From assembly GCA_964572155.1 (NCBI GenBank), contig CAZNDZ010000002.1:83089-147088 (forward strand): 64,000 nt of DNA, in the 5' to 3' direction. The notes below the pieces were generated by a model. That model saw nothing but the letters and a program-made list of their open reading frames with translations, made no database searches and had not been told where the DNA came from. The position numbers and the translations under genes are program-made. The DNA comes from an uncultured Planctomycetales bacterium (GTDB taxonomy: Bacteria; Omnitrophota; Gorgyraeia; Zapsychrales; Fredricksoniimonadaceae). Below, piece by piece: positions 9,290-24,456 of this stretch (position 1 is the first letter of the stretch; each line of letters starts with the position of its first letter).

Positions 9290-10920
9290 TTTAGCCCTTC
9301 ATCGTAGCTAGTCTGCCACGGTTCATTTAATTCAACATTAACAATACGCTGATCCTGAATGTAAACCGCCTTAAACACAATCCGCATAAAGGTTTTAATT
9401 AAAAAACTTGTTCCTCCGAAGCCATCATCCGCTATTTCATGGTTTGGCGAAGGAGAATCAGCTTGCTCATTATCCTGAAATTTTCGTAAATGTAAAAGAA
9501 AATCCTCGGTGGCTCGGTTTAAATTAATGGCGTTTCTTTTGTCTAAAATCCTAAGCTGAACACCTTTAATATCCTGCCTTAACTTCTTCTCCTCATTACG
9601 CAAAAGCTCGGCGCGGTCTTTGTAAATCTCCAGATTAATGCTGTCCTGCGTAAAAACTTCAAACAAACCTTTTTGCTTCTCAAGGTTTTTATTAAGAGCC
9701 TTTGTCAATACTTCCAGCTCATCTAAGAACACCTGCTCCGGCTGGGAGGCATTAAGCTTAACCATGTCGCCTAATTCTTCAAGGACATGCAAGTTTTGGC
9801 ATACCACATCAATAATATCCCAGACCTGTACGCTTATCACATCCGCTGACACGCTTGGATTATGGCACGTTAAATACGAAACCCCTTTGGATGAACAGCG
9901 ATACCACGGGCGCTTGACCTTGGTGCGGTGATTGGTAATCGACATGATGCCACGAAAATTACCACCACACTCCTTGCATTTTAGCACACCGGACAAGTGG
10001 TAATTATTGTTCTTAAATTTCACCACCGCATTCTTGCGATTGCGTTTAAGCAAGACCGCGGCTTCATCGAATTGTTTCTGGCTGATGATAGGCTCATGGA
10101 CATTGGGCACTTCAACAATTTTAGAAGTATCATTGGCGATATATTTATAGCCATTACCTTGACCATCTTTTGTTTTTGCTCTTGGATCATAACGATGGCG
10201 GTTCCAAACCAACATCCCTAAATACACCTTGCTCTTTAGAATGGTGCCAATAAATTTCGTGTAGAATCGCCCGCCCTGACGGGATGATGTTCCTAGACGA
10301 TAAAAATGACCGGCAATTTGCGAGGTGCTTTGGCCGTTGATATAACGCTCAAAAATTTCTCTAACAATCTTGGCTTCCTCCTCATAAACCTCCAGCTTCT
10401 TAATGTCTTTATTGTAGCGATAGCCATATGGTGCATAACGCGCCCCCTGCCAATGGCCTTTCTTAACACCCACCAGCATCCCGGGAAAGACACGCTCAAC
10501 CAAACGATTGCGTTCAAACTCCGCGCAAGAGCCCAGCATTTGAATGGCCATCTTGCCAGCACTGGATGTTGTATCAAAAGGTTCAGTCGCTGATTTATAA
10601 CCAACCCCTAAATTATCCAATTCCTCAAGCAAACCCAGAAGGTCTTTGAGCCGACGGCTTAAACGATCTTGTTTATACACCATCACCAAATCAAACTGTT
10701 TATTGCGAGCATCGAACAACAACCTCTGCAAAGCAGGCCTGTCCATATTCCCTCCAGAAAAGCCGTCATCCATGTAAATATCCTTACCCGGCAAGGTGCA
10801 AACAATTGTCCAGCCAAGATTCTGGGCATATTGCACCAAAAACGTGCGTTGCACCTCGAGTGAAAAACCTTCGCGGGCTTGGTCTTCTGTACTGACTCTG
10901 GTATATAAAGCGACTCTCAT
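9169..10920 (-). mobile_element. Large serine recombinase (resolvase/invertase N-domain + recombinase domain + Zn-ribbon/coiled-coil); island integrase
   Basis: MRVALYTRVSTEDQ catalytic Ser motif (start chosen at the internal Met). Recombinase domain and CxxC...C zinc ribbon (CKECGGNF...C) are present. The C-terminal ~90-aa tail may be non-coding read-through into miaB. Confidence 0.85.
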
Positions 10921-10955
10921 GTTCATTTGGCGGGAGTATACCTTGCATTCCCGCA

Positions 10956-11201
10956 TTATTCAAAGCCTTCTTGAGCTTTCTTGGCTAAAAACATTCTAGT
11001 TAATATTTCAATACCATCATCAAACGACTTTCGCGCCTGAGCGATTTCCCCCTGAGACAAACCTTTAGCCTTGAGCTTTATTTCTAAAGCATCCCAGCCA
11101 CGGGGTTTTGATATTGCGTCATTATTTATAATTGAGTCACTATTCATAACAATAAGAAGGTGTGCGGAGGAAGACACAAGGAGGGATCTTCTGTTATGCA
11201 C
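10956..11201 (-). CDS. Small hypothetical protein, possible HTH/excisionase-like regulator
   Basis: Sits immediately upstream of and abutting the recombinase gene. The segment GLSQGEIAQARKSF resembles an HTH turn. Function not supported further. Confidence 0.35.
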   Translation of the reverse strand: MHNRRSLLVSSSAHLLIVMNSDSIINNDAISKPRGWDALEIKLKAKGLSQGEIAQARKSFDDGIEILTRMFLAKKAQEGFE

Positions 11202-11266
11202 CTTTTACCATAACAAAGCCTCAAGATAGGATGGAGACTATCTCAAAGCTCCTCCGCATATCTTGA

Positions 11267-11941
11267 TTAAACCGATTCTTGAAGAACAACGCCCATCTTG
11301 GCACGTTGCCTTTCAAGAAGCCGACTAACTTCATCATCGATCTTTAAACTATTCGTCCAACCGGAATAATTCTGAGCCTGCTGGTATTTGGAATAGTACG
11401 TTGGCTCTTTGACAGATGATTTTATTTTTTCTACTTCTTCCTTCATAATCTGATCAGTTCGGGAATCATCATCGAAAACGCTACTATCTTTTAATCGACT
11501 AATAACACCTGATCCCCACAATTGTTCAGCAATAACTAATACCTTTGCTTTTGCTCGAGCCAATTCTTCCATGAGCCGATCACGCTCTGGTTCTATGGCT
11601 TTCATTTTCTGCCCCGCAACTGTGTTGCCATTTTCAATAATGGCTTCATACGTTTTGCGCAATTTTTCCCCTAAATTGCCAATGCTCTCGGTAACCGCCT
11701 CAAGATCAAGACTTGCGTTTTCAAGCTTGCGGTCTACCTCATTGATTTGATCTTCCGAAACGACCTCCCCGCACAGCTTTTTCTGACGCAATTCCTTTGC
11801 CTGCTGACGTAAGGTATTCAATTGCTTCTCGTACTCCATTTGCTTAAGCTCCAGCCCCACGATTTGCTCGGCGATTTCTTCCGGTGTGTTGTTTTGATTG
11901 TTTAAAACCTTTAAAAAGTTAAGCTTCATATAGCCCTCCAT
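11267..11941 (-). CDS. Coiled-coil hypothetical protein (224 aa)
   Basis: Intact ORF with heptad-rich E/K/Q sequence. No recognisable domain. Confidence 0.5.
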   Translation of the reverse strand: MEGYMKLNFLKVLNNQNNTPEEIAEQIVGLELKQMEYEKQLNTLRQQAKELRQKKLCGEVVSEDQINEVDRKLENASLDLEAVTESIGNLGEKLRKTYEAIIENGNTVAGQKMKAIEPERDRLMEELARAKAKVLVIAEQLWGSGVISRLKDSSVFDDDSRTDQIMKEEVEKIKSSVKEPTYYSKYQQAQNYSGWTNSLKIDDEVSRLLERQRAKMGVVLQESV

Positions 11942-12223
11942 TTTTTGAGCAAGTTTTAAAAATTATGTCACTAAAAACATCAATTTGACCCTCTATAACC
12001 TCCCCAACTGACAGCCCGAATACTCCTATTTATCGACGATAGACCTCCTTTCTTAACCCTTATGCCAAATTCCCACCAAAACTTAAATTGAGTGACATTG
12101 ACATCGATTTTTTGAACCTGTATCACTGACAACCTGCGCCTCGCCCGACCCGCATCCGGCACCCCACCCGGAAGGACCCAAAACCTCCACAAAGCGCAAC
12201 TCAACTACATTTCTTAAACCGTC

Positions 12224-12322
12224 ACACTTCAATAGCTAAAGCGTCCAGCGCCTTTCTTGATCCTCGACACTTCAAATCTTGAAGCGTCCACACAGGACAA
12301 ACTTTAAACCGACGCTTCAAAT
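12224..12322. repeat. Iteron-like direct repeats: two units ACACTTCAA-N6-AAGCGTCCA (12224-12247 and 12267-12290) plus a hybrid third copy GACGCTTCAAAT (12311-12322)
   Basis: Read directly from the sequence. Half-sites occur in both orientations, and CTTCAA-atc-TTGAAG is itself palindromic. The repeats lie in a 410-bp non-coding gap beside the HTH_36 gene. Confidence 0.45.
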
Positions 12323-12351
12323 ACTGAACTCTTATATAGCTTCTACCATGC

Positions 12352-12690
12352 CTATACATAACGAATGGTGTCATGCTTACCCGTTAACTTATAAAGGCAG
12401 TAATACCGATACAACCCGCCATGCTTTGTCTTTTCAACCCATTCCTTACTGATCAATCCTTTAAGAGACTTTGAAAGTGTGGCGGGCGAAAAAATTTTTT
12501 TAAGTTCGGCATACTTCAATGAGATCTGGCCATTGTTACGACCATTGAAATTCTTCTTAATGTAAATGTAGGTGAGCATCTCGGCATGTGACAGCCTTTG
12601 CCATTGCTCGCTTTCCATCATGGAACGCTCAAGCATTACAAAGGGCGGATAACGATGTTTTTTATTCCTGCTAGACATGCCTTTCTCCAC
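12352..12690 (-). CDS. Winged-helix DNA-binding protein, HTH_36-like (phage replication-organiser N-terminal type)
   Basis: Pattern LSHAEMLTYIYIKKNFNGRNNGQISLKYAELKKIFSPATLSKSLKGLISKEWVEKTKHGGLYRYY matches the HTH_36 architecture (helix, NG-rich turn, SxxTLAxxxG, LIxR....G..Y.Y). Confidence 0.5.
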   Translation of the reverse strand: MEKGMSSRNKKHRYPPFVMLERSMMESEQWQRLSHAEMLTYIYIKKNFNGRNNGQISLKYAELKKIFSPATLSKSLKGLISKEWVEKTKHGGLYRYYCLYKLTGKHDTIRYV

Positions 12691-12701
12691 ATTTTAAAGA
12701 C

Positions 12702-12989
12702 CTACGAAACCTTGCCCGCCAACTCTAAATACCTGGCAACCACAGCCCGTTTAATAGATTCCCCCGCATCCCTGCTGATTGGATGAACACAGCTAATCCT
12801 TTTACCATTAGGAAGCACTTTGTCCGGGTAAACCAAACGGAAACCATCCTCCGTTGTAAAAGAAGAATAAACAGCGATGTTGCCTATATAGATTTGATTG
12901 TTGATGACAAAAGAAGCGAAAGCAACAAGCCCATTTTGCGGCTTAACTGGCAGGATATTGATTTCATTAATGTCGAGCGTATTCATCAC
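12702..12989 (-). CDS. SpoVG-like nucleic-acid-binding protein
   Basis: 95 aa, alignable by eye to B. subtilis SpoVG. Shared blocks are I/V-x-V-x-x-x-G-x-x-A-x-AS-x-x-x-x-x-x-x-x-I-x-x-I-x-V, then G-F-x-x-x-P, then HPI-x(4)-R-x-x-I-x-x-AV-x-x-Y-x-x-L. Confidence 0.6.
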   Translation of the reverse strand: MMNTLDINEINILPVKPQNGLVAFASFVINNQIYIGNIAVYSSFTTEDGFRLVYPDKVLPNGKRISCVHPISRDAGESIKRAVVARYLELAGKVS

Positions 12990-13079
12990 TTCGTCCCCTG
13001 AAAATAAAAAATCCCATAACTTTTGGTTACAGGATCAATATAAAACATCAGGTGATGAAGTCACGTACAAATAGACCAC

Positions 13080-13772
13080 CTAGGCTATTTGTTTGAAGCC
13101 ACCCTCGATTAATTCAATGCTGTTTTCTAAATCCCTTTTGGCACGTCTACGCGCATAATGCATGCCATGTGATGAAATATAATGTTTATAAAATTTCTTT
13201 GCCAAATCATCCAAACCCACACCTTCTACGTACTGATCATACACATTCAAATAATGCTTAAACTGCCGGGGAAGCACTCTCGGCGTTACCTTTTGCTTTG
13301 GAAATGTCTTTTCAATTTCCTTCAACCTTTTCTGCCATCGATCCACCATTAAACTGAACTCATCACAAATCTTTTGCTTGGCCAAGCTCATGTTGACCCT
13401 GATCTCAAGAAACCTGCCATTGGTAAAAACATCCCTGTCATTAAGCAAATCCGGATTATCAAAGCAATCAATGGCATTCGCCTCAACCAATAGAGCATCA
13501 ATATAAAGAGTTTTTGTTTTTCGGTCACTCTCAATAAGCTCTTCAAATGACATCGATGGCGGGATAGGGTTTAATAAACCCCATTTGGATAAAATCTTTA
13601 AGGCTTTGTCTTTTTGTGATTCAGGATGAGAATTCTTAATAAGATCAACGATGCGGAGTTTTCGTACGATAAAAATATAATCGTCCATATATTGGACATT
13701 TCGCCTGAGAAATTCCCAGCGATACTTTAAGCAATTTTTCTCACGCTTTGTCAGTAAACCAACTCGCAACAC
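13080..13772 (-). CDS. Hypothetical protein (230 aa)
   Basis: Intact ORF. The N-terminal LTKREKNCLKYRWEFL may be an HTH-like segment. No assignable domain. Confidence 0.45.
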   Translation of the reverse strand: MLRVGLLTKREKNCLKYRWEFLRRNVQYMDDYIFIVRKLRIVDLIKNSHPESQKDKALKILSKWGLLNPIPPSMSFEELIESDRKTKTLYIDALLVEANAIDCFDNPDLLNDRDVFTNGRFLEIRVNMSLAKQKICDEFSLMVDRWQKRLKEIEKTFPKQKVTPRVLPRQFKHYLNVYDQYVEGVGLDDLAKKFYKHYISSHGMHYARRRAKRDLENSIELIEGGFKQIA

Positions 13773-13825
13773 ACCACAATTTCTCCCACATTATCAACAA
13801 TGAATGAAACAACTATAATTGTAAG

Positions 13826-16800
13826 CTATAGAATACTCACAAATTCAGCTACAACACGAAAATCATCACCAGAAACGTTTTCGATCACAATATCTTTAAA
13901 ATCTTTATTATCCGGCGATAGAATGATCCGCTTGTGCCTCCACTGATCATCACCTAAATCTTCCTTCTCGCTGTGATAACGTTTAATGGTATAACTCTTC
14001 TGAGTTTCGGGGTCTTTAACTAATCGAGATTCCACAAGAAAAATACCAATACGTGAACCTCCGCGATCAAAACGGAACAAGCACCAGCTGCCGTCTTTAA
14101 TGGTAGGTTCCATTGATTTTCCAAATACCTGCGCGATGAACATATGCTCACCAATCTTACGCCCATGCATCGGCTTCCACCCGATAATTTCTTGCGTTAA
14201 CTGTTCTCCAAAGTCTGTCGCTACTGCCTGCAAGTCATAAACGGGAAGATACCCCTGTTCAATTGTCGCATCGGGAATCACATCCTTAAAAAACAACGGC
14301 TTATCATCCTCAACCTTTTGAAGGCGTCCATAAACACGCTTTAATAAATAATCTTTTACAACCGCACTAAAGGCTTTATCACCTGTGATCTTATTGAAAA
14401 TATCTTGATTCTGATCCATCCGCTCAACTAACTTATCCATAAACACATCATCAAATCCGTATTTGAAATTATCAATAGAATTGCTCTGGGCTTGCATGCC
14501 AAGGCGCTCATCTAAGACCATTTCCTCCTCAATTTGATCAAAGAAAAGCTTATCTGCTTCCGTAAAATCTGTTCCGAATCGATCATTAAGAAGATTAATT
14601 ATTTCAGATAATTTTGCGTATTCGTCCTTATCCTTCTTCGTGCCCGCCTCAGACAATGGCTTGATTGCCGCTCCTGAATCCTTTTCTAAAGCAATCTTGC
14701 CCTCTGCAACTTTCTGCAAACGGTAATACTGAATAGCAACCTCATCACCCAAATTGTATCTTGGCCCACGATTTGGCCCCGGTAATTTCTTTAAAAGCAA
14801 ACGGCCATAGGCATAAAACTTTTCTAAATCAACATCTTGAAACGGCATAATTTGCGCTAAGAATGCATAAAGCCTGACAAAAACTCCAAGCGTATTAATA
14901 AAATCGTCTTTGTGTTCATCCTTATCAATTGTTTCAAAACGTGTCACTGCCACATCAATTAACGCATTTAACTGGGCATGTTCCTGTTTATTGTGCTGTT
15001 CTTTATTCTTAAAGAATACGGTACAAAATGCATCCACATCTGATGGATAAATGATTTTAAATGAATCAATCTTAGTCTTTAAATCGTAGAGCTTATTGGG
15101 ATCTGTTGTCTCTGTTAATTGCGTTTGTTCATAATATGGTTGGAATGCCGCTAAAATATCCTCCCGGCTATTTACAAAATCTAACACGAAGGTATCTTCC
15201 TTACCCGGACAAGTACGATTCAAACGGCTTAATGTTTGTACAGCCTTAACACCATCAATACGTTTATCTACATACATCGTATGCAACAACGGCTCGTCAT
15301 ATCCTGTCTGATACTTCTCAGCTACTAAAAGAATTTGATACTCTGAAGAAGAAAACTTCTCCGGCAATTCTTTCTCACCAAAACCATTCATCTTGGGCTC
15401 TGTGTATTCAGGCGGTACACCATCCAATAAAACAGTTCCAGAGAAAGCCACCAAAGCCTTGATATCCCGATAACCTTTTTCTTTTAAATAACGATCAAAC
15501 TCTTGCTTATAGCGAACCACGTGCTCACGGGAAGCTGTGACAACCATGGCCTTGGCTTTACCGCCAATCAACTTCATGGTTACCTGCCTAAAGTGCTCGA
15601 TGATAACCTCTGTTTTCTGGGCTAATACATACGGATGCATTGTTGCAAATCTAGCAATAGCGGCCGCGGCTTTCTGCTTATTTAGCTGAGGATCATCTTC
15701 GATCTTTTTGTTTAACTGGTAAAAAGACTGGTAGGTGGTGTAGTTGTCTAATACGTCCAAGATAAAACCCTCTTCAATGGCTTGTCGCATAGAATACAAA
15801 TGAAATGGCACCGGCTTCCCATCCGTACCCTTTTGACCAAAAGTCTCAAGTGTCTTAGCCTTAGGTGTTGCCGTAAAAGCAAAGAAGCTTAAATTCGGCT
15901 GAGGCCCTCTGGCACGCATGACCTCACGCAAACCATCTTCAATATCATCTTCATCGCTGATCAATAAAACCCTTTTCAAATCAGCGGCAGATTCTCCCCC
16001 TTGCGAACTATGTGCTTCATCGACAATAACCGCATAATTACGCTTAGCTAACTTCCCAACTTTCTCAATAACAAAGGGAAACTTCTGTAATGTGGTGATA
16101 ATAATATTTGTGCCGTTGGTCAACGCATTGGCCAACTGCTCAGAATTCTGGTCAATCTTTTCAACCACCCCGCTTCTATGCTCAAACTGATAAATAGTCT
16201 CTTGCAATTGCTGATCAAGCACTAGCCTGTCCGTCACCACAATCACCGTATCGAATATGCGCTTATCCTCTTGATCATGGATCCCCGCCAAACGGTAAGC
16301 AAGCCATGCAATTGAATTACTCTTGCCGCTTCCAGCGCTGTGTTGAATTAAATAATTTCTTCCGGCACCATTAGCCTTGGCATCAACAGCTAATTTCCTC
16401 ACCACATCAAGCTGATGATAACGAGGAAAGATCATGGTCTCTTTACGGACAGTACGATTATCCATGCGGATTTCTTTTGTTTCTAAATGCATGAACCGAC
16501 CCAAGATATCCATCAGACTGTCTTTAATTAAAACCTCTTCCCAAAGATACGCTGTCTTATGCCCACTTGACGGAGGATTTCCTTTGCCCTTGTTATGCCC
16601 TTTATTAAACGGTAAATAATACGTTCGGTTTCCTTGAATACGGGTAGTCATATAAACCTCATCCGTATCAACAGCAAAATGAACCAAAGCACGCTTTTTA
16701 AATTGGAATAACAAATCCCTCTCATCACGGTCATATTTATACTGTCGTTTGGCATTTTCCACATTCTGCCCCGTGAATTGATTCTTAAGCTCTAATGTCA

Positions 16801-17248
16801 CCACCGGCAGACCATTAACCAAAAGGACAATATCAACTGAACGCTCATCTTTTTCACAAAAGTGAACCTGACGGGTAACATTAAGAATATTTTGGTCGTA
16901 TAATTTCTGAGTTGTAGGATTAAGCCCGCTGACAGGCTTAAAGTAGGCAAGGGAGAACTTCTTGCCGTAGTCAGTAATTCCATAACGAAGACAGTCCAGC
17001 ATACCGCGCGTTTCCAACTCCTGATTCAGCCGATAAAGAAACTTCTTCTCTACCTCCGCACCATGAATACCAGCCAAAGCATCCCAAGCATCTTTTTGTG
17101 TCGTTTTAATAAATTTGAATAGCTCCTCTTTATCAATGCACATAAGACGATCGAAATTAGCTGAATCTCCTTTTATGTAACCACCACGGTCGATCAGACT
17201 TTGCTCGATTGCTTCTTCAAATGCTTTTTCATTTGTTATTGATGACAT
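13826..17248 (-). CDS. hsdR: Type I restriction enzyme R subunit HsdR with C-terminal LexA/UmuD-like S24 peptidase domain
   Basis: Motifs: N-terminal nuclease region NGLPVVTLELKN, SF2 helicase motif I GSGKS, DEAH box VIVDEAHSSQG and motif VI QTLSRLNR. The C-terminal ~150 aa carry the S24 signature YLPVYDLQAVATDFGE...GKSMEPTIKDGSWCLF...YTIKRY (Ser/Lys dyad positions conserved). Confidence 0.85.
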   Translation of the reverse strand: MSSITNEKAFEEAIEQSLIDRGGYIKGDSANFDRLMCIDKEELFKFIKTTQKDAWDALAGIHGAEVEKKFLYRLNQELETRGMLDCLRYGITDYGKKFSLAYFKPVSGLNPTTQKLYDQNILNVTRQVHFCEKDERSVDIVLLVNGLPVVTLELKNQFTGQNVENAKRQYKYDRDERDLLFQFKKRALVHFAVDTDEVYMTTRIQGNRTYYLPFNKGHNKGKGNPPSSGHKTAYLWEEVLIKDSLMDILGRFMHLETKEIRMDNRTVRKETMIFPRYHQLDVVRKLAVDAKANGAGRNYLIQHSAGSGKSNSIAWLAYRLAGIHDQEDKRIFDTVIVVTDRLVLDQQLQETIYQFEHRSGVVEKIDQNSEQLANALTNGTNIIITTLQKFPFVIEKVGKLAKRNYAVIVDEAHSSQGGESAADLKRVLLISDEDDIEDGLREVMRARGPQPNLSFFAFTATPKAKTLETFGQKGTDGKPVPFHLYSMRQAIEEGFILDVLDNYTTYQSFYQLNKKIEDDPQLNKQKAAAAIARFATMHPYVLAQKTEVIIEHFRQVTMKLIGGKAKAMVVTASREHVVRYKQEFDRYLKEKGYRDIKALVAFSGTVLLDGVPPEYTEPKMNGFGEKELPEKFSSSEYQILLVAEKYQTGYDEPLLHTMYVDKRIDGVKAVQTLSRLNRTCPGKEDTFVLDFVNSREDILAAFQPYYEQTQLTETTDPNKLYDLKTKIDSFKIIYPSDVDAFCTVFFKNKEQHNKQEHAQLNALIDVAVTRFETIDKDEHKDDFINTLGVFVRLYAFLAQIMPFQDVDLEKFYAYGRLLLKKLPGPNRGPRYNLGDEVAIQYYRLQKVAEGKIALEKDSGAAIKPLSEAGTKKDKDEYAKLSEIINLLNDRFGTDFTEADKLFFDQIEEEMVLDERLGMQAQSNSIDNFKYGFDDVFMDKLVERMDQNQDIFNKITGDKAFSAVVKDYLLKRVYGRLQKVEDDKPLFFKDVIPDATIEQGYLPVYDLQAVATDFGEQLTQEIIGWKPMHGRKIGEHMFIAQVFGKSMEPTIKDGSWCLFRFDRGGSRIGIFLVESRLVKDPETQKSYTIKRYHSEKEDLGDDQWRHKRIILSPDNKDFKDIVIENVSGDDFRVVAEFVSIL

Positions 17249-17257
17249 ATATACCTA

Positions 17258-17989
17258 TCACTGAGATGCGTTCATAATTTCGTTTGAACTTAAATCAAAT
17301 CCTTCTTCTTGCAATCTTTTACAAAGCTTAGGAATTATCTCTCGAATATGAGTGTTATATCCATATCTAATGATGCCTTCCAAATCAGATGGCAACTCTA
17401 AGTGCCCCTTGACTATAATTGCCATGCGATTTCTTGTCAAAGAAGACAACAACATTCCTGTCTCAAGAATTACATTCTGTCGGGTTCGTGGTTCAGCTTT
17501 ATCAGCGCCGTCCTTAAGCGCATATCCTACGTCATCAGGCGTCATTAAAACAATTCCAAAATCTGATGAATAATCCTTCCCAATTCTACCTTCTAAAGCT
17601 TCAATAATAGTTTTACCTCCGCCACTACTATTCATCAAAATAAACGGTTCCAAATTTAACCGATGCAACGCAAGTTCCAACTGATCTCTTGCTTCAACAT
17701 CATGACCATGCACAATAAAAATCTGTTTCTTAGAAGAGCCGCCTTGTGACGTTCCATTCCCAGCAAACAAATCATGCATCCTCTTTTTTGCATCATCATT
17801 TCCTTGAAACTGTATCGTCTTGTTTGATGACCACCAATGAAGGATCCCTCCATCTTTGGCGCGGAATGAATACTTATCTCCTGATTGAGTCCAGGATCCT
17901 TCAATAGTCATAAAGATTGACTTTAATTGATCAATACTACCGTTATATTTATCAGCCATTAACAATCTCCTTTTCAAAACGAACATCAA
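17258..17989 (-). CDS. TIR-like domain protein (Cap12/PycTIR-type, COG4271-like) with ~80-aa N-terminal domain of unknown function
   Basis: KQIFIVHGHDVEARDQLELALHRLNLEPFIL...GKTIIEALEG...DFGIVLMTPDDVG...RTRQNVILETGML...RMAIIVKG...ELPSDLEGIIRYGY matches the conserved blocks of the CBASS/Pycsar-effector TIR-like family. It lies between hsdS and hsdR and overlaps the hsdS stop. Confidence 0.65.
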   Translation of the reverse strand: MMFVLKRRLLMADKYNGSIDQLKSIFMTIEGSWTQSGDKYSFRAKDGGILHWWSSNKTIQFQGNDDAKKRMHDLFAGNGTSQGGSSKKQIFIVHGHDVEARDQLELALHRLNLEPFILMNSSGGGKTIIEALEGRIGKDYSSDFGIVLMTPDDVGYALKDGADKAEPRTRQNVILETGMLLSSLTRNRMAIIVKGHLELPSDLEGIIRYGYNTHIREIIPKLCKRLQEEGFDLSSNEIMNASQ

Positions 17990-19301
17990 TCTTTCCCGTC
18001 ACTGCTTCTGAAATTAACGCAGTGCGGTATTCGTTCAACAGCTCGATAGACCTCTGTTCTAGAACAATCTGCGCATCGATCTGAACAGTTTTTTTATCTA
18101 AAAAAGATGCTATAGCTTCTTGTTCTTTTTTGGGTGGAATTAAACATATAGAATTGCTTAAAGCATAATTGCTCAATCCATATCTTGTAACGCCAGACGC
18201 TTCAATTCTAAACTGATAATTAATACAATCTGCAGACAAGACCCAGAACAGATATTTTCCTTGGATCAATTGTTCTTTGGGGCGCACTTGAGCCAGATGA
18301 TAGCCACATATTAAATTTGGCTCTTCAAAGGACACATACGCAGGAATAGCAATATCGCTCCATTCTTCAGAATCTTTAGTTAGCAAAACATCCCCCACCT
18401 TTAAATGAAACTTTACAATTTCATCTGCTGAAGCTGTAGCATCCATAAAATCTAAATCTGGCGTAATTAAATCGTTATAATAAACATCAACGTAATTACA
18501 AAGTCTTACAGCTATCTCGCCTTCTTCGGATTTCTTGTTAACATTGCTAAACTGAACCTGTGCATTAAATTTCAACTTCTTAATCTCCCAATGCTTCGGA
18601 ACCTTACCTAACCATTCAATACCAGAATCTTTCATCTCAGCTTTGGGATCAATCCCTTTGGTCACTGTTTGATTAATTACTGCCGCACGCTCCTCTTTAA
18701 GAAGCTTAATCATCTGCTCCTTTTTGGTAATCAGGTCGTCAATCTGTGCAGTATTATGATCAAGAAATGCGGAAATACATCTTTGTTCACTTATATCATC
18801 CGGATACCAAATCGCTATATCTGCCAAATCTGAAGAATTAATTGCCGGATAGCTCACACCAACCGATAAGGCGCATATTCGATCAATGATCTTCTCGCTA
18901 CGTAAAATATAATAAATAAATTTTGGTTCAAGCTTTGATCCAGGAGTCACCACAGCAAAACCGGTTGAGACGATAAAATCATTCACGTCCTCTTCGAAAT
19001 GAGCAATGGCTTTTAAATAAGTTCTGACTGTGGAAACAATTGAATCACCTTTTCTTACAATTCTTCTAGCTCGAGAAGGCGCGTTTAGAAAATTAACTTT
19101 CTCCGTAATGCTATAACCCTTCTCAAGATCAACATTTCCTATGTCAATATAGTTAAACTCGTAGCTTCCATCAGTTTCCTCGCCCAAAGCAAGTTGATTG
19201 ACGCGTGAAACATATTTAATCTTTTTTATCTTCCAAATTTCAGGAATATTCCCAATCCATTTAATCCCTGAATCTTTATATGCTGGATAATACTTAAACA
19301 T
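17952..19301 (-). CDS. hsdS: Type I R-M specificity subunit HsdS (two target-recognition domains)
   Basis: 449 aa with duplicated TRD architecture and conserved HsdS repeat regions (e.g. the conserved spacer helix LLKEERAAVINQTVTKGIDP). Confidence 0.8.
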   Translation of the reverse strand: MFKYYPAYKDSGIKWIGNIPEIWKIKKIKYVSRVNQLALGEETDGSYEFNYIDIGNVDLEKGYSITEKVNFLNAPSRARRIVRKGDSIVSTVRTYLKAIAHFEEDVNDFIVSTGFAVVTPGSKLEPKFIYYILRSEKIIDRICALSVGVSYPAINSSDLADIAIWYPDDISEQRCISAFLDHNTAQIDDLITKKEQMIKLLKEERAAVINQTVTKGIDPKAEMKDSGIEWLGKVPKHWEIKKLKFNAQVQFSNVNKKSEEGEIAVRLCNYVDVYYNDLITPDLDFMDATASADEIVKFHLKVGDVLLTKDSEEWSDIAIPAYVSFEEPNLICGYHLAQVRPKEQLIQGKYLFWVLSADCINYQFRIEASGVTRYGLSNYALSNSICLIPPKKEQEAIASFLDKKTVQIDAQIVLEQRSIELLNEYRTALISEAVTGKIDVRFEKEIVNG

Positions 19302-20235
19302 AAGCTAGTCCCAGATCAGATGTATCCTTCTTAAATGGCTTTTGCTGATGAATCAAAACATGCCCATTTTCTAATGGAATTTTAATCTTCCTTAGCTCAA
19401 CGCGCCAATCCTGATATTCCTTAACAATATTCTCGACCCCAGCATGTTCATTAAAAATAACCTTATCTTCAGCAGACTGAACCATCAATCGGTTAAGCAT
19501 TTCAACGCCTTGCGGTTTTATTGCTCCCACACTGTCACTTTGGCGCGGCTCTGTGTCATGTAAAGGATGAATAATTATTGCTAAACGTGGAGTTATGGGG
19601 CAATACAAATCACATTGATTAGCGTTCCAATATTGCAAACAAACTGGATTATCGCTAGTCAAAAATTGAACAGGTGTTTCATTCTTAAATACAATCCATG
19701 GCGATGTAGCTAGGAGATTTTGAACGCCAATCAAAGCATTAATCCCCAATGCCTGTGGAAATGCTTGCTTGATGAGAGCCTTGGTTCCTCCATGCTTACG
19801 AATTGTTTCTATTGCTTCACGATGCTTTGAATTAGGATCTGATAATTCTTTCTCTTCCAATTTATCATACAAATGCTGAACAATATGCGAAAGGCCACCA
19901 ACACCCAACCTCACAGCCGTTGGAGTGCAGGCTCTTAGATAAGCAAGGTACCCAGCTATTAAATGCTTTGTTGTTGCGTCATATATATTCGTAGAAATGC
20001 TATTAACACAATCAGTCCATTTAGGTTCGACGATCTTAAGAAAATCCTCAACAGCTCTTGGATTATCTGGAAAATATTCGTTTGAACTCCAGTCCACTTC
20101 ATAACAGATTGACTTTATTGGAATAGCATTTTGTCGACTTAAGTTGCTTTTTCGAAAAACATTAATAAAATCAGGGTTGCTAGTCAGTCCAAATCCCCTC
20201 AAATATGTTTGAGCGACATAATGATCTTTAGCCAT
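19294..20235 (-). CDS. DUF4238 family protein
   Basis: N-terminal HYVAQTYLRGF matches the DUF4238 signature (HYVPQFYLxxF). The gene sits between hsdM and hsdS. Confidence 0.6.
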   Translation of the reverse strand: MAKDHYVAQTYLRGFGLTSNPDFINVFRKSNLSRQNAIPIKSICYEVDWSSNEYFPDNPRAVEDFLKIVEPKWTDCVNSISTNIYDATTKHLIAGYLAYLRACTPTAVRLGVGGLSHIVQHLYDKLEEKELSDPNSKHREAIETIRKHGGTKALIKQAFPQALGINALIGVQNLLATSPWIVFKNETPVQFLTSDNPVCLQYWNANQCDLYCPITPRLAIIIHPLHDTEPRQSDSVGAIKPQGVEMLNRLMVQSAEDKVIFNEHAGVENIVKEYQDWRVELRKIKIPLENGHVLIHQQKPFKKDTSDLGLAYV

Positions 20236-20833
20236 TTAGAACCTCTGAATTCATCTTCCCGATCCAAGCATGTAACGCGTGTTTTATTTCGTCGGTAGTC
20301 ATACCTTTCATTCGAAATATTTCTTCAATTATATCCTCTGCAACAGTCAAGGTTTCAACCGCCACAGTTTTATCTAATTTCTCATAAGCCGAAATATCTG
20401 GCATGCCTTGAATTTGAATACCAGGTAAATTAATGGTCTGATGGGTGCTTTTAAAATGCATAAGCTTGTTCCTTAAATTCTTTAATTTCATAAACCGCTG
20501 ACCTACCCCCTCACTAAGATCAATCTCCTTATCAAAAAACCTCTTCGGCCATGTTTTAATTTTGCGGTCTAGACTCATATTTTCATCAAGATCTTTAATC
20601 GTTTGATCGCTACAACTTGAGCAGTGAGCCTCTCCAGCCAAAACCCTGAAATACATGTTAAAAAATGTTTCAACAATAGCTACGCTCATAAACACGCAGG
20701 GCAATACTTTTCGTTGAAGATTTGTATCGTCTCGCTCGACCTGAACTTCTTGCACCATTTCGCGCAAGCATCCAAAGTATTCCCAAATCATTTTATTCGG
20801 CGAACCAAAATGTGAATTAGCTGCATTATTCAC
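20228..20833 (-). CDS. Hypothetical protein, candidate HEPN-domain (RNxxxH motif)
   Basis: 201 aa, mostly helical by composition. KNLRNKLMHF contains an R-N-x3-H HEPN-type motif. The assignment is inferential. Confidence 0.4.
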   Translation of the reverse strand: MNNAANSHFGSPNKMIWEYFGCLREMVQEVQVERDDTNLQRKVLPCVFMSVAIVETFFNMYFRVLAGEAHCSSCSDQTIKDLDENMSLDRKIKTWPKRFFDKEIDLSEGVGQRFMKLKNLRNKLMHFKSTHQTINLPGIQIQGMPDISAYEKLDKTVAVETLTVAEDIIEEIFRMKGMTTDEIKHALHAWIGKMNSEVLNG

Positions 20834-22835
20834 CTAAAACTTCTCCCAATAGCCCTTCAGTTTCTTTTTCTAAAGCCAAAATATCTTTGCGTATCTCATC
20901 AAGACTACGTAATGGCTTATATTTATAGAATTCCTTCGTGAAATTGATTTCATACCCGATCTTGTCCTTGCTCCTATCCATCCACGCATCAGGCACATGA
21001 GGCATGACCTCACGCTTAAAATACTCGTCAATATTATCGGACAGCGGAACATTCTCCGCGTCGCGCAATTCCGCATCAGCTTCTGGCTTGCCTTCTTTAT
21101 CCAGACAAATCTCCGCTGTCTCATCCCTCTGGGAAAGAACCTCAAGGATGGATTTCATAACAGGCGCTTTGATCTTCAATCCAGCCTTATCAATGGCCGC
21201 ATCTATGATTGCTATAAATTTTTCTCGGTTATTATAGGTCTTGGCGCTATCCAATCCATTGAGCATTGCTTTAATCGCCTTCTGTAAAGCTTCGCCCTCC
21301 TCAATTTCCTTAATACCTTCCTTGCCCTTCTTCTTGGATTTGGCAAGATTAACAAATCCTGACTGCTGATCCAATAAGGCTATTCTTTCTGGGGATACCT
21401 GAAAACTCAATCGAAGCGGCCGCTCGACTGTCACACGGGTATAACCAAAATATTCATTGGGGAATATCTTGCAATGCTCTCCAGCTTTAAATTGTCCATA
21501 TATCTTTGTGATTGTCCCGATATGATCCTCGGCTATTTCATTACGTTTATTACCGAGGCTTCTGGCCATCTTCTTAAAGAAACCAACCCCATTGATAAGC
21601 TGAATCTTTCCTTTTCGATCTTTAGCTTTACGATTAGTAACAATCCAAATATAAGTTGAAATGCCTGTGTTATAAAAAAGCTGATCCGGCAAAGCAACAA
21701 TTGCCTCTAACATATCATTCTCAATAATCCACCTACGTATCTCACTCTCTCCGCTACCAGCTCCACCAGAAAACAAAGGCGAACCATTAAAAACAATCCC
21801 TAAACGAGCACCACCATTTTCCGGACGCATTTTGGAAATCATGTGTTGAAGAAACAAGAATGATCCATCGCTTATGCGTGGCAATCCAGCACCAAAACGC
21901 CCGGCGTTTCCTAACGTTTCATGCTCCTTCAGAATTTCACCCTCTATCTTCTTCCACTCAACACCAAAGGGAGGGTTGGAAAGCATGTAATCAAACTTCT
22001 CGTCCTTGAGCCCGTCTTGAGTAAAGGAATTACCAAACTTAATTTGATCTGGATTCTGTCCCTTAATAAGCATGTCGGAATTGCATATCGCATATGACTC
22101 TGGGTTAAGCTCTTGTCCAAAAACACGAAGGCTTGCATCAGGATTTAATTCACGCAAATATTCCTCTGCAATGGACAACATCCCACCCGTTCCGCAAGCC
22201 GGATCATAAAGCGTCTTCACAATTCCCTTTTTGGTTAATACTTCCTTGTCATTTAAGAAAAGAATATTAACCATCAGACGAATAACTTCACGCGGGGTAA
22301 AATGCTCCCCTGCCGTTTCATTGGAAAGGTCAGCAAACTTACGGATCAACTCCTCGAAAATGTAACCCATTTCAATATTGGGGACGACTTCAGGATGGAG
22401 ATCAACTTCAGCAAACCGTTTTATGATTAAGAAAAGGAGGTCGGATTTATCAAGCCGTTCAATATGATCTTCAAAATTGAAATGATCAAGAATATCCCTG
22501 GCATTTTTAGAAAAACCAGCAATGTAATTGCGGAGATTAGCGGCAATATCGCTTGGGTCAGCAACAAGCTTCTGGAAGTCAAACTTGCTTTTGTTGTAAA
22601 ATGTTAGTTTTGCCTTCTTTTTTAGAACTGTTTCAATTGCTTCAGGCGATAACCCTTTGGTCTGCGGTAAATATTCCAAGACAGTTAATTTTGTTGGCTC
22701 TAATACGCAATCCAAACGGCGCAACACCGTGAGTGGTAAAATTACCTTCCCATATTCAGATTGTTTATAGTCTCCACGAAGCAAATCCGCGATGCCCCAT
22801 ATAAAATTTGCACGGTCTTTAAAATTATTAGCCAC
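20826..22835 (-). CDS. hsdM: Type I R-M N6-adenine DNA methyltransferase HsdM (long form, 669 aa)
   Basis: HsdM N-terminal domain, AdoMet motif I (DPACGTGG) and catalytic motif NPPFG (LSNPPFGVEW). C-terminal extension present. Confidence 0.9.
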   Translation of the reverse strand: MANNFKDRANFIWGIADLLRGDYKQSEYGKVILPLTVLRRLDCVLEPTKLTVLEYLPQTKGLSPEAIETVLKKKAKLTFYNKSKFDFQKLVADPSDIAANLRNYIAGFSKNARDILDHFNFEDHIERLDKSDLLFLIIKRFAEVDLHPEVVPNIEMGYIFEELIRKFADLSNETAGEHFTPREVIRLMVNILFLNDKEVLTKKGIVKTLYDPACGTGGMLSIAEEYLRELNPDASLRVFGQELNPESYAICNSDMLIKGQNPDQIKFGNSFTQDGLKDEKFDYMLSNPPFGVEWKKIEGEILKEHETLGNAGRFGAGLPRISDGSFLFLQHMISKMRPENGGARLGIVFNGSPLFSGGAGSGESEIRRWIIENDMLEAIVALPDQLFYNTGISTYIWIVTNRKAKDRKGKIQLINGVGFFKKMARSLGNKRNEIAEDHIGTITKIYGQFKAGEHCKIFPNEYFGYTRVTVERPLRLSFQVSPERIALLDQQSGFVNLAKSKKKGKEGIKEIEEGEALQKAIKAMLNGLDSAKTYNNREKFIAIIDAAIDKAGLKIKAPVMKSILEVLSQRDETAEICLDKEGKPEADAELRDAENVPLSDNIDEYFKREVMPHVPDAWMDRSKDKIGYEINFTKEFYKYKPLRSLDEIRKDILALEKETEGLLGEVLGE

Positions 22836-22852
22836 TTATCACTCCCATTCTT

Positions 22853-23536
22853 TTAATCTTCACAAGGCGGATACTGCATCGGCGCTTCCCCAATGCTCTC
22901 CAATACTTTCGGCTTTAAATCCCCTTTGGTGTTGTTGCAAATCTCTAAAAGCTCCACATTAAACTGCCAGCCATCGCCGTAATCAAAAAGCATGATCAAC
23001 TTCTCACCTACGGTATCAAAGGCCTGTGAAATCTTGGTCTTTTTTACACCCTTGGCGCCTGGCCTGCCCTCTTCACCGATATCAACAAAAAGCTCAAAGG
23101 CCTTTCGGCAATTTCGATGATCCTTTAATTGGTCATAGAACCCAAAGCAATGATCAAACTCAAAATCAAATGCCTGCGTTATGACCTTGGCAAAATTATA
23201 AAGTGTTTTGGTTGGGACGATCTGGATCTTGCGAATAATCCTTTTCTCCTTCGTGCAATGTTCATCGCCGTAAAGCCAGACATTGAAAATATAAAGACCG
23301 GACTCGGTCGCCTTAGCTTTCTTCTTTGGAGCCGGAGCCAGATCATCGATAACCCGGGCCACCTTGTGACCGCAGGTACCGCAGAACCCTTGAAGAACCA
23401 CGACCCCGTTCAGTTCCGCGTGATAATCAACAATGGTCACCGACTTTCGGCACTCCCCGCACCAAACGTTACTCAAAAGCATACGCCGGATGTCCAAAGG
23501 AACAGTCTGCCATAGTTTTAATGCTTCATCTGCCAT
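22853..23536 (-). CDS. pRiA4b ORF-3-like protein with N-terminal CxxC...CxxC zinc ribbon
   Basis: LFDYGDGWQFNVELLEI matches the hallmark DxGDxWEH-type motif of the plasmid pRiA4b ORF-3 family. Zinc ribbon is CGEC...CGTC. The gene lies 17 bp upstream of hsdM on the same strand. Confidence 0.5.
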   Translation of the reverse strand: MADEALKLWQTVPLDIRRMLLSNVWCGECRKSVTIVDYHAELNGVVVLQGFCGTCGHKVARVIDDLAPAPKKKAKATESGLYIFNVWLYGDEHCTKEKRIIRKIQIVPTKTLYNFAKVITQAFDFEFDHCFGFYDQLKDHRNCRKAFELFVDIGEEGRPGAKGVKKTKISQAFDTVGEKLIMLFDYGDGWQFNVELLEICNNTKGDLKPKVLESIGEAPMQYPPCED

Positions 23537-23554
23537 CTTAATCCTTTGACCATT

Positions 23555-23570
23555 TCGCTCATGTGAGCGA
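23555..23570. promoter_or_regulatory. Perfect 16-bp palindrome TCGCTCA-TG-TGAGCGA between phosphoesterase and pRiA4b-like genes
   Basis: Read directly. The 2-nt spacer argues for a protein-binding operator rather than an RNA hairpin. Confidence 0.3.
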
Positions 23571-23596
23571 TATGATAATCAATATTTGGCCAATTC

Positions 23597-24220
23597 TTAT
23601 ACGTCAAGAACTACTGGTTTATTCACCAGCTTATAATCCTCATTCAAAACTGAACAGTTGATATACGTCGTATCCTTGGTTTTCTCAACACCATACCCGC
23701 CATGGATATGACCACAAATGACATAAGGAATCTTTAAACTATCAATTTTCTTGAGCAACGTCTTACTGCCTAAATGATCCCCGCCTGGACGGGCTGTGTC
23801 CTGATGGCCAAAGGCCGGGCCGTGGGTCAAAAGAATGTCTGTTTTCTTTTGAATCTTGCTCCAATGGTACCGATCAAGGTTCTCCTCTGATTCCATGAAT
23901 GCCCAATTCAAGAATATCGGCGTCATGGGTGAACCCCAGATGGTCATGCCATTGGGTAAAACATATGGCTCGTCCTTTAAGTACACCGCTTTCGTTAAAT
24001 AATTCTTAACCTGTTTTGGAAACTGCTCACAATAAAAATCATGGTTACCTGCTATCGCAATAATATGCTCAAATTTAAGACCCAATAACCAATCGTTAAA
24101 ATGAATAACATCCATCACATGACGAAACTCGCCGTCACCCGCGAAAATAAGCACATCACCTTCCGGAAGCTTTACATTGTGATGCTGTGTATGTGTGTCG
24201 GCAAAGGCAACTATTCTCAT
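23597..24220 (-). CDS. Calcineurin-like metallophosphoesterase
   Basis: MPE motifs present: AFADTH, GDGE, GNHD, THGP, GHIHGG. 207 aa. First gene of the co-directional block that continues into hsdM. Confidence 0.8.
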   Translation of the reverse strand: MRIVAFADTHTQHHNVKLPEGDVLIFAGDGEFRHVMDVIHFNDWLLGLKFEHIIAIAGNHDFYCEQFPKQVKNYLTKAVYLKDEPYVLPNGMTIWGSPMTPIFLNWAFMESEENLDRYHWSKIQKKTDILLTHGPAFGHQDTARPGGDHLGSKTLLKKIDSLKIPYVICGHIHGGYGVEKTKDTTYINCSVLNEDYKLVNKPVVLDV

Positions 24221-24342
24221 CTGTGTCCCAATGATCTGGCCAACACACTGTTGGCAAATTACTTACGAGGCACCTCATATAAAATAAAAACCTTAACTGC
24301 TAAATTGCCATATAGTTACATTAAAATCATATAATCATTCTT

Positions 24343-24370: not shown

Positions 24371-24456
24371 AGCGCTTAGTTCCCATCACTCCATAATTAT
24401 GTCTTTTAATGGCAACTAGGTTACTCACCAAATAACCTACGACGTCTTTTTATACA

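Follow-up and report, generated by a model that had tools for sequence, protein, structure and literature searches.

A two-domain TIR gene between hsdS and hsdR of a Type I restriction operon: a candidate autonomous effector, probably carried as cargo

Does a TIR gene inserted into a Type I restriction-modification (R-M) operon serve the restriction enzyme, or is it merely carried by the operon? The question is raised by a gene between hsdS and hsdR in the stretch of DNA analysed here, 64,000 nt long and referred to as the window. The hsdS-X-hsdR arrangement is the slot of PrrC in the prr locus. PrrC consists of an ABC-ATPase and a HEPN tRNA anticodon nuclease. An earlier note on this DNA had placed the gene in the PrrC-equivalent position, with which the gene order agrees, and had suggested by analogy that its product is a latent effector held in check by the Type I complex.

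The open reading frame (ORF) described there is present on the minus strand, but it is shorter than had been thought. The coordinates 17258-17989 correspond to the longest ORF, which opens at a TTG. Since the N-terminus reads MADK/MxxKF in 19 of 19 aligned homologues, the start is placed at the ATG at 17959, giving a protein of 233 aa (Table 1). A GGAG at 17967-17970 lies 7 nt upstream of this ATG. It is this start that overlaps the hsdS stop (ATGGCTGA at 17952-17959), and the overlap suggests translational coupling of the two genes. The spacer to hsdR is 9 nt and not 10 bp, because the TGA occupies 17258-17260 and the hsdR ATG stands at 17248.

Table 1 Features of the TIR gene and its host operon (positions are those of the window)
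Feature	Position	Strand	Details and basis
Two-domain TIR protein CDS (PADLOC PDC-S35 family)	17258..17959	-	233 aa; ORF list and sequence
TGA stop of TIR gene	17258-17260	-	sequence
TIR domain (Cap12/PycTIR type) and C-terminal helices, residues 79-233	17261..17725	-	
Glu166 codon (GAG), NVILETG, predicted catalytic glutamate	17462..17464	-	alignment with Cap12 and PycTIR
Low-complexity linker, residues 69-78	17726..17755	-	pLDDT <50 at residues 71-74
N-terminal domain, residues 1-68, putative sensor	17756..17959	-	AF2 pLDDT >90 in both models
hsdS stop/TIR start overlap, ATGGCTGA	17952..17959	-	sequence
hsdR, restriction/translocase subunit, 1140 aa	13826..17248	-	HSDR_N, SWI2_SNF2, ResIII, T1R_D3-like; TIGR00348 E=4e-62
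hsdS, specificity subunit, two target-recognition domains	17952..19301	-	PF01420, two stretches; PADLOC Specificity_I E=5e-113
DUF4238 protein gene	19294-20235	-	PF14022 E=2.9e-27; between hsdM and hsdS
201-aa protein gene, RNKLMH motif (Rx4H, HEPN-like)	20228-20833	-	ORF between hsdM and hsdS
hsdM, methyltransferase subunit, first gene of the operon	20826..22835	-	HsdM_N and N6_Mtase; PADLOC MTase_I E=2e-292

By the matches of HsdM, HsdS and HsdR to Pfam, PADLOC and NCBIfam models, the genes flanking the TIR gene are a real Type I system. Between hsdM and hsdS, the genes of the 201-aa and DUF4238 proteins overlap at their ends in the ORF list (the pair spans 19294..20833 on the minus strand). 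A scan for promoters and terminators across the operon gave no excess of sites over shuffled sequence, the base-composition profile revealed no anomaly, and no tRNA genes were found within the window.

The Cap12/PycTIR-type identity proposed for the protein holds. All five sequence blocks cited for it (IVHGHD, GKTIIEALE, IVLMTPDD, RTRQNVILETG and PSDLEG) occur in the translation. Moreover, Pfam PF10137 (CAP12/Pycsar effector TIR domain) matches with 105.3 bits (cut-off 24.7; E=2.6e-30), residues 79-201 aligning with profile positions 1-117 of 119, and is the sole Pfam match in the protein. On this score, the TIR assignment is far above chance. The protein was modelled twice with AF2. A first model, based on an alignment of 19 close homologues, had a mean pLDDT of 59.7 in the TIR domain, and its Foldseek search was uninformative; it was replaced by a second model from a 69-sequence alignment covering both clades of the family. 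The best structural match of the protein is Cap12, and the TIR (flavodoxin-like) fold is present.

The predicted catalytic glutamate, Glu166, corresponds in the alignment to the Glu of the Cap12 block NVVFEFG and of the PycTIR block NVHLEFG. In SfSTING, the NADase site comprises R78, N80 and the catalytic residue E84, together with D110, which acts in trans (PMC9402430). These four residues align with R158, N162, E166 and D192 of the TIR protein, respectively, which are invariant in 69/69 sequences that are 41-78% identical to the window protein. With an active site completed in trans, activity would depend on TIR-TIR packing.

The part of the protein upstream of the TIR domain had been described as an uncharacterised domain of about 80 aa. 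A distinct, conserved domain of some 70 aa is indeed found there. DSSP on the AF2 model assigns strands to residues 3-4, 21-26, 29-34, 39-43 and 48-52 and helices to residues 9-15 and 55-68, all at pLDDT >90. The predicted fold is beta-alpha-beta4-alpha with a TBP-like topology, an order that agrees with the B1-H1-B2..B5-H2 order of TBP-like domains (PMC3597702). The domain carries a conserved motif, WW-S-x-K/G-T-I-Q-F-Q-G, and is followed by a linker whose length differs between homologues (gapped, variable alignment columns). The TBP-like assignment draws on topology and a short motif and is putative. At the motif level, the domain is similar to the N-domain of RNase HIII and to the NRD of RnlA, with hhalign probabilities of 5-13%. 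A Pfam scan of 10 N-domains gave a sub-threshold match to PF15935 (RnlA_toxin) in one of the ten sequences, and the N-domain profile found nothing significant among PDB sequences. A homologue search with the 71-aa RNase HIII N-domain returned 2 proteins, too few for a profile.

The N-domain is not confined to TIR proteins. A profile search recovered 985 representatives at E<=1e-3, some of which join the domain to a defence protein of the dCTP-deaminase type (PADLOC dCTPase E=7e-173) or to a multi-pass membrane protein, while others have it in tandem copies or with unknown C-termini. The fusions to the deaminase and the membrane protein give the domain the look of a portable sensor, and its junction to other effectors speaks against the idea that the TIR protein is held in check by the Type I complex. 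The N-domain is the more useful lead from this locus. Linked to a predicted TIR NADase in one protein and to a dCTP deaminase or a membrane protein in others, it looks like a reusable infection sensor. Its ligand, once found, would explain the triggering of several single-gene defences, and the E. coli prophage copies of the TIR family open this question to direct test.

The TIR protein was compared with known TIR-containing systems. Cap12 (TIR-STING, e.g., SfSTING; PDB 7UN8, 9LMQ) has a STING domain, which is missing here; the putative sensor of the window protein is N-terminal and has a fold different from and unrelated to STING. The NCBIfam Cap12 models reach 31-33 bits against a cut-off of 450, in the TIR part only, and no CD-NTase or other nucleotidyltransferase appears among the genes of the operon and its flanking island annotated by Pfam, PADLOC or NCBIfam, which cover all but a few small ORFs of the island. 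PycTIR (PDB 8JSJ) belongs to the same Pfam TIR family and has the same order, an N-terminal sensor and a C-terminal TIR domain; the PADLOC PycTIR model matches residues 78-218, again the TIR part only (E=1.5e-9). However, PycTIR of Pycsar has a cyclic-nucleotide-binding domain and an adjacent pyrimidine cyclase, and family profiles found neither a cNMP-binding domain nor a pyrimidine cyclase in the TIR protein or its neighbours. Thoeris has a ThsA-type effector partner, whereas the TIR gene has no conserved neighbour. Membership of CBASS, Pycsar and Thoeris was rejected on account of the missing cyclase, sensor domain or partner. PrrC of the prr (EcoprrI) locus is likewise inserted between hsdS and hsdR and is conceptually similar as a second-line suicide effector, but the two proteins are unrelated, the window protein being devoid of the ABC-ATPase and HEPN architecture. 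Short, lone TIR proteins are also known from E. coli. [quoted passage not shown] 2024; PMC11350192). The triggers found for such single-protein TIRs are phage portal proteins, and the variable N-terminus is thought to set specificity (PMC11350192).

A full-length match was found in a catalogue of candidate defence genes. The PADLOC PDC-S35 model PDLC05003 matches residues 4-233 of the TIR protein over positions 3-245 of 245 (E=2.1e-86), and four other PDC-S35 models match with E=1e-39 to 1e-50. The match covers both domains of a single gene and makes the TIR gene a member of PDC-S35. The 145 PDC candidates were drawn from genes that lie inside BREX, DISARM and Type I R-M loci, and PDC-S35 has the status of a candidate phage-defence family (Payne et al. 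2024, PADLOC-DB v2, bioRxiv 10.1101/2024.01.29.577857). Embedding in Type I R-M is exactly the context of the window gene, and we infer that PDC-S35 was derived from it and not from BREX or DISARM. Since the protein is a full-length PDC-S35 match, the earlier statement that no pairing of R-M and TIR had been described is too strong; the gene is, by its profile match, part of an already catalogued candidate anti-phage family and not a new pairing. What stands of that statement concerns individual description: the texts searched neither name PDC-S35 nor describe or test the family individually, and no literature description of a PF10137 or Cap12/PycTIR-type TIR paired with R-M or hsdS was found.

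The distribution of the family bears directly on the question of control by the restriction complex. Among 80 species-level loci, 58 encode the two-domain TIR protein without a detectable hsd gene within 10 kb, a count that includes a few too-short contigs, two loci whose hsdM is decayed or divergent and another in which hsdR lies 2.6 kb upstream. Neighbour clustering in these 58 loci found no conserved partner, nor was one found in the Pfam-annotated contexts in Campylobacter, Ottowia and Ralstonia; with no conserved neighbour in the 58 loci, the protein appears to have no obligatory partner, in line with the single-gene definition of PDC-S35. The family falls into two clades. In the closer one, whose members share at least 55% identity with the window protein, the TIR gene lies directly after hsdS across several phyla. 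In a larger and more distant clade, the same two domains stand alone, including in E. coli prophages; the family occurs in E. coli temperate phages and in 37/5426 complete E. coli genomes, strain A1_136 and phage vB_EcoM-689R2 being examples of carriers. A plasmid copy adjoins IS5, further copies lie on integrase- or IS-flanked islands, and the taxonomic distribution is patchy. That the identical architecture, N-domain included, is found away from hsd genes in most genomes, and also in prophages, argues against a protein that needs the Type I complex to be kept silent. Even in the close clade, intact TIR copies lie beside decayed or absent hsd genes (L016, L018, L022, L032 and L035), hence the protein is tolerated without the complex.

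The slot was also considered from the side of the restriction operon. None of the 80 closest hsdM operons (metagenomic loci, HsdM 47-90% identical) contains the TIR gene. Of these loci, 43 show both hsdS and hsdR; the two genes abut in 18, and the slot holds other cargo in the remaining 25, namely GmrSD/HEC-06, PDC-M04, PDC-S19, PDC-S18, PDC-S02, a pair of M78 and DUF4411 proteins, a Schlafen-like protein and a Hypoth_Ymh HEPN protein. In L104, for instance, the 201-aa and DUF4238 genes are kept, but PDC-S19 fills the hsdS-hsdR slot. The nearest hsd operons are therefore without the TIR gene, their slot being empty or occupied by other defence genes, which is a further point against the proposed check by the Type I complex. 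The TIR gene looks like swappable cargo rather than a dedicated partner of the restriction enzyme.

Taken together, we lean towards the view that the TIR protein is a self-contained abortive-infection NADase of the PDC-S35 family that is carried as cargo, and consider this somewhat probable. The N-terminal sensor would be joined by the flexible linker to the TIR domain, and in the resting state the TIR domains would be unpacked and the enzyme inactive. Once the N-domain recognises an infection cue, possibly a nucleic-acid structure or a phage protein, the protein would oligomerise, and Asp192 of one TIR domain would move into the active site formed by Arg158, Asn162 and Glu166 of the adjacent one. 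NAD+ hydrolysis would thereby be switched on, and the infected cell depleted of NAD+. In this lineage, the gene may have been captured as cargo in the Type I hsdS-hsdR slot, where it would be co-transcribed with hsdS, with probable translational coupling; the TIR protein could for this reason back up restriction as a second layer. Should the prediction hold, the operon would be a restriction system with its own suicide back-up, an NAD+-destroying enzyme, and a further indication that second-line defences generally dock at the hsdS-hsdR junction of Type I systems.

The alternative closest to the earlier proposal is a PrrC-like guard, in which HsdM2S1(R2) would keep the TIR protein silent until a phage anti-restriction factor frees it, causing NAD+ loss. 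The position shared with prrC and the overlap of the TIR start with the hsdS stop are in its favour. Control of this kind is nonetheless disfavoured, and we regard it as unlikely, given the copies without hsd genes, the unrelated cargo in the nearest operons and the lack of homology to PrrC. In addition, PrrC is almost exclusively embedded in R-M loci (bioRxiv 10.1101/2024.01.29.577857), whereas the PDC-S35 TIR family mostly stands alone.

A narrower version restricts the guard to the hsdS-linked clade, where the TIR NADase would be a true Type I guard, docked on the complex and freed by an anti-restriction protein or DNA mimic. Coupling would then set a fixed ratio to HsdS, and the TBP-like domain would monitor the state of the complex or its DNA substrate. 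Several features of the clade favour a guard in either form. About 18 further species-level loci have the gene in the hsdS-X-hsdR position. In 19 of 22 non-redundant embedded loci, the distance from the hsdS stop to the TIR start is -17 to +27 nt, the 8-nt overlap of the window is frequent among embedded loci, and the tight junction is kept across phyla and through changes of gene order, the hsdS-TIR pair being intact even in the order hsdS-TIR-x-hsdR-hsdM. Furthermore, the TIR protein diverges in step with HsdR and HsdM (Mantel r=0.54 and 0.60; 0/5000 permutations reach the observed values) and is more conserved (median identity 62%) than HsdR (53%) and HsdM (55%). By its junction, gene order and divergence, the TIR gene of this clade is bound more closely to hsdS than expected for cargo inserted at random. 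Set against them are the intact copies of the same clade beside decayed or absent hsd genes, and we consider this version, too, quite unlikely. If true, it would be PrrC logic with a different weapon.

Rather improbable, in our view, is a TIR-like glycosidase acting on a substrate other than NAD+ (dNMPs, modified bases, or RNA or DNA ends), which the TBP-like domain would deliver to nucleic acid. The fusion of the same N-domain to a nucleotide-depleting dCTP deaminase would fit, as would its resemblance to the RNA/DNA-hybrid-binding N-domain of RNase HIII (PMC3710099, PMC4132731). The nearest relative by sequence and structure is, however, the Cap12 NADase, and all four residues of the Cap12 NAD+ site are kept. 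To our knowledge, all characterised PF10137 members (Cap12, PycTIR) are NADases.

That the protein has no defence role, but binds nucleotides in a housekeeping or regulatory task or is an inactive relic, and lies in the operon by chance, is very improbable. Several stand-alone copies do lie among housekeeping genes, but the sequence is very strongly conserved, with invariant catalytic residues. The patchy taxonomy, the occurrence in prophages, plasmids and integrase- or IS-flanked islands, and a slot otherwise filled by known or candidate defence genes also oppose this explanation.

Bacterial TIRs are able to make cyclic ADPR-type signals. Least probable of all is a signal producer of the Thoeris ThsB type, whose product would activate another protein such as the DUF4238 or HEPN-like protein of the operon, since the TIR gene lacks a conserved partner, stand-alone copies have none, and the PF10137 TIRs known to us are effectors and not signal producers. 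A DUF4238 gene does lie two genes upstream of the TIR gene, and one study reports a two-gene TIR system with a DUF4238 domain that defends E. coli (PMC11350192). Among TIR-containing loci, DUF4238 accompanies the TIR gene in the window locus only and is ruled out as a conserved partner; other embedded TIR loci carry FRG, PDDEXK_3 or DUF6575.

Both the 201-aa and the DUF4238 genes also occur in the related operons L103 and L104. The hsdR product bears an extra S24/LexA-like domain at its C-terminus, with a Peptidase_S24 score of 22.9 bits, below the cut-off of 23.3.

The TIR-like gene lies on the minus strand in a six-gene operon. The open reading frame proposed for it in the earlier note (17258-17989) is a real gene, but its TTG start at 17989 was not retained, as the position of ATG 17959 (MADKYNGS...) matches the N-terminus in 19 of 19 homologues. 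GGAG is found 7 nt upstream of this ATG, and the start overlaps the hsdS stop (ATGGCTGA). Since the homologue starts, the GGAG and the overlap favour ATG 17959, the window protein is 233 aa long. Nine nucleotides separate the end of the gene from the hsdR ATG. A sigma-70-like site lies within the gene towards its 3' end, about 165 nt before hsdR, and could serve hsdR as a promoter of its own; the number of such sites across the region does not exceed that in shuffled sequence.

Features of the operon and the surrounding island (window positions)
Feature	Position	Strand	Remark
Island (approximate extent)	9169-25848		roughly 17 kb
Large serine recombinase	9169-10956		island side
RovC-like regulator	13080-13772		island
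SpoVG-like gene			island
hsdR	17248-13826	minus	operon
Peptidase_S24/LexA-like domain of HsdR	13844-14158	minus	residues about 1031-1135
TIR-like gene	17959-17258	minus	operon
Sigma-70-like site	17412-17440	minus	TTGACA, 17 nt, TATAGT; 11/12 consensus matches
hsdS	19301-17952	minus	operon
DUF4238 gene	20235-19294	minus	operon
Gene of no assigned family (201 aa)	20833-20228	minus	operon
hsdM	22835-20826	minus	operon
PRiA4_ORF3 protein	22853-23536		island
Metallophosphoesterase	23597-24220		island
hipBA	24457-25848		other island side

Residues 79-201 belong to Pfam PF10137, the CAP12/Pycsar TIR domain (105 bits vs a cut-off of 24.7, E=2.6e-30). With a shallow alignment, AlphaFold modelled the TIR domain poorly; prediction from a 69-sequence alignment covering both clades of the family reached a mean pLDDT of 82.5. 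In a Foldseek search of the PDB, TIR-STING (Cap12) structures ranked at the top (E=6e-7). The Cap12/PycTIR-type assignment of the earlier note is thus correct, and the five motifs it quoted are all found in the translation. In a profile search of PDB sequences, Cap12 and PycTIR also aligned to the family, in the region of the NVxxExG motif. In the cryo-EM structure of SfSTING, the active-site residues are R78, N80, and E84, and the partner TIR in the dimer contributes D110 (PMC9402430). These four residues are chain positions 86, 88, 92, and 118 in the alignment, an offset of 8 that fits all four identities; their counterparts in the window protein are R158, N162, E166, and D192. None of the four varies across 69 family members (41-78% identical to the window protein), which is good sequence-level evidence for a putative NADase dependent on TIR-TIR packing.

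The N-domain (residues 1-68) is predicted by AlphaFold with pLDDT above 90 as beta-alpha-beta4-alpha, the strand/helix order of a single TBP domain (PMC3597702). Its conserved motif, (W)W-x-S-T/N-G/K-T-I-Q-F-Q-G followed by a helix, is in register with RSGKVLFQGKAAEQEA of the Bst RNase HIII N-domain (sequence checked against PDB 2D0A) and with TTGKLQIQG of the RnlA NRD. The hhalign probabilities against RNase HIII and RnlA are weak (5-13%), and no match to the N-domain was found among PDB sequences. A TBP-like N-domain is plausible from the predicted fold and the motif, but not established. The N-domain of RNase HIII binds RNA/DNA hybrids (PMC4132731, PMC3710099), and fusions of bacterial Schlafen defence nucleases to TBP-like domains occur (PMC13056530).

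The N-domain is modular. A search of 1.84 billion proteins with its profile gave 985 cluster representatives (E<=1e-3). In two of them (P0390 and P0364), it is fused to a dCTP-deaminase defence protein (PADLOC dCTPase E=7e-173), where it stands in for the first ~140 positions of the model. Furthermore, it is fused to a multi-pass membrane protein (P0362) and to C-termini of no assigned family (P0251, P0387), and it occurs in tandem without an effector (P0241, P0277). Other matches are TIR fusions and fragments. When one input domain is combined with different outputs that kill the cell or deplete nucleotides, this typically marks a sensor module in defence proteins. The N-domain is read as a sensor because it is joined to such alternative effector outputs. 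No description of an N-domain shared by TIR, dCTP-deaminase, and membrane proteins was found, and this portable putative sensor, common to the TIR protein and the dCTP-deaminase defences, is a new lead.

We favour, with moderate confidence, an autonomous single-gene abortive-infection effector, a NADase triggered by its N-domain and carried in the hsdS-hsdR slot. [quoted passage not shown] In the window lineage, the gene would ride in the slot and be co-expressed with hsdS. Single-protein TIR systems of E. coli are a precedent for such solo defence: they protect against phage, depend on the TIR active site, and have phage proteins as their triggers (PMC11350192).

The earlier note had proposed by analogy with PrrC that the TIR protein is held in check by the restriction complex. 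Two homologue searches returned 2748 and 6835 matches at E<=1e-3, and 80 species-level genome loci were fetched and searched with the window's Hsd proteins. In the close clade (>=55% identical to the window protein), the TIR gene directly follows hsdS in about 18 loci, 17 of which have hsdR downstream on the contig. The hosts include Planctomycetota, Verrucomicrobiota, Magnetococcales, Chlorobiaceae, Latescibacterota, Geobacter, and Syntrophorhabdus, among others, and the arrangement is also present on contigs from other collections. The junction is strikingly tight and conserved, in favour of a guard: in 19 of 22 non-redundant loci, the distance from the hsdS stop to the TIR start is between -17 and +27 nt, frequently with the 8-nt overlap seen in the window. 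Between the TIR gene and hsdR lie 0 to 3.2 kb, and two Latescibacterota loci have the order hsdS-TIR-x-hsdR-hsdM. Moreover, TIR divergence correlates with that of HsdR and HsdM (Mantel r=0.54 and 0.60; observed value reached in 0 of 5000 permutations), so these genes have a common history, whether as a module or through common descent, which also speaks for a guard.

Nevertheless, a guard role is unlikely, as the majority of the family is stand-alone. The distant clade (38-53% identity) keeps the two-domain protein but as a stand-alone gene, in hosts such as Dehalococcoidia, Neisseria, Pseudomonas, Liberibacter, and Synechococcus. Neighbour clustering found no conserved partner gene of the stand-alone copies, and in Campylobacter, Ottowia, and Ralstonia the Pfam-annotated neighbours are housekeeping or mobile genes. 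Even in the close clade, intact TIR copies lie beside decayed or absent hsd genes, adjoining integrases, TniQ or IS200, a truncated hsdM, or plain housekeeping genes. A Paludisphaera plasmid copy adjoins IS5. The closest genome match is in a Candidatus Omnitrophota MAG (95% identity over residues 53-233). E. coli temperate phages carry a member with 45% identity and unchanged architecture. A family member is also present in 37 of the 5426 complete genomes of E. coli (e.g., NZ_CP040390.1, 1344456-1345217); together, these copies offer a homologue directly testable in a model host. In Escherichia phage vB_EcoM-689R2 (3884-4645 of the fetched locus), the two-domain homologue adjoins DNA polymerase and helicase genes.

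Sister operons also swap the cargo of the slot. Metagenomes were scanned with the window's HsdM, and none of the 80 closest operons (47-90% identical) contains the TIR gene. Among the 43 showing both hsdS and hsdR, the two genes abut (37 nt or less) in 18 and enclose other genes in 25. According to Pfam and PADLOC, this cargo comprises GmrSD/HEC-06, DUF3800 with a partner (PDC-M04), DUF3644 (PDC-S19), DUF5655 (PDC-S18), YhcG (PDC-S02), an IrrE/M78 and DUF4411 pair, a Schlafen AlbA_2 protein, and a Hypoth_Ymh HEPN protein. Several small unannotated proteins, which may have transmembrane segments, were seen as well. In one operon (L104, HsdM 86% identical), the same 201-aa and DUF4238 genes lie between hsdM and hsdS, and PDC-S19 replaces the TIR gene. 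This absence from otherwise very similar operons counts against the reading of the earlier note by one of its own standards, and it points to the TIR gene as interchangeable cargo rather than a dedicated subunit. On the evidence so far, the likeness to PrrC is one of position and not of mechanism. Lesser alternatives are a glycosidase acting on a nucleotide other than NAD+ or on nucleic acid, a signal-producing TIR, and a non-defence protein.

The protein was rejected as Cap12, having no STING domain and scoring 31-33 bits with the NCBIfam Cap12 models (cut-off 450), and as PycTIR, having no cyclic-nucleotide-binding domain. No cyclase gene is present among the annotated genes of the operon and island. 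The whole protein, including the N-domain, matches PADLOC PDLC05003 (PDC-S35, E=2.1e-86). The PDC models stem from a guilt-by-embedding screen of genes nested in BREX, DISARM, and Type I R-M systems; clustering and curation gave 145 untested candidates for phage defence (bioRxiv 10.1101/2024.01.29.577857). The literature search found no publication naming or testing PDC-S35 and no paper describing a PF10137-hsd pairing. The view that no R-M/TIR pairing had been described is too strong: the family is already catalogued in PADLOC, though uncharacterised, and the pairing is known at catalogue level only.

The island, likely an integrated element, is flanked by housekeeping genes on both sides. 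A MiaB-like gene accompanies the recombinase on one side, and cell-envelope genes accompany hipBA on the other. The 201-aa protein matches nothing in Pfam, PADLOC, NCBIfam, or the PDB. It does have the sequence RNKLMH, which fits the Rx4H motif characteristic of HEPN RNases, and it recurs in related operons (L004-L007, L103, L104; E=1e-69 to 1e-94). The DUF4238 protein recurs in sister operons (L104, L113, L116, L122); among TIR-containing loci, it accompanies the TIR gene in the window only. A DUF4238 domain is part of one new E. coli TIR defence system (PMC11350192). A Planctomycetota MAG locus (L027, 3781-14594) combines the TIR gene with a different HsdM family and three AAA/ABC-type ATPases; the gene immediately upstream of the TIR gene encodes a small protein that partially matches RNase H. 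One ATPase is an 889-aa AAA_13 protein; AAA_13 is also the Pfam family of the RloC anticodon nuclease. Finally, HsdR carries an extra C-terminal Peptidase_S24/LexA-like domain, matched slightly below the cut-off (22.9 vs 23.3 bits). It has a GKSMEP motif resembling the LexA catalytic-serine motif, and the HsdR of L004 has the same domain (precomputed Pfam). Such a domain, if self-cleaving and RecA-responsive, could be a built-in restriction-alleviation switch.
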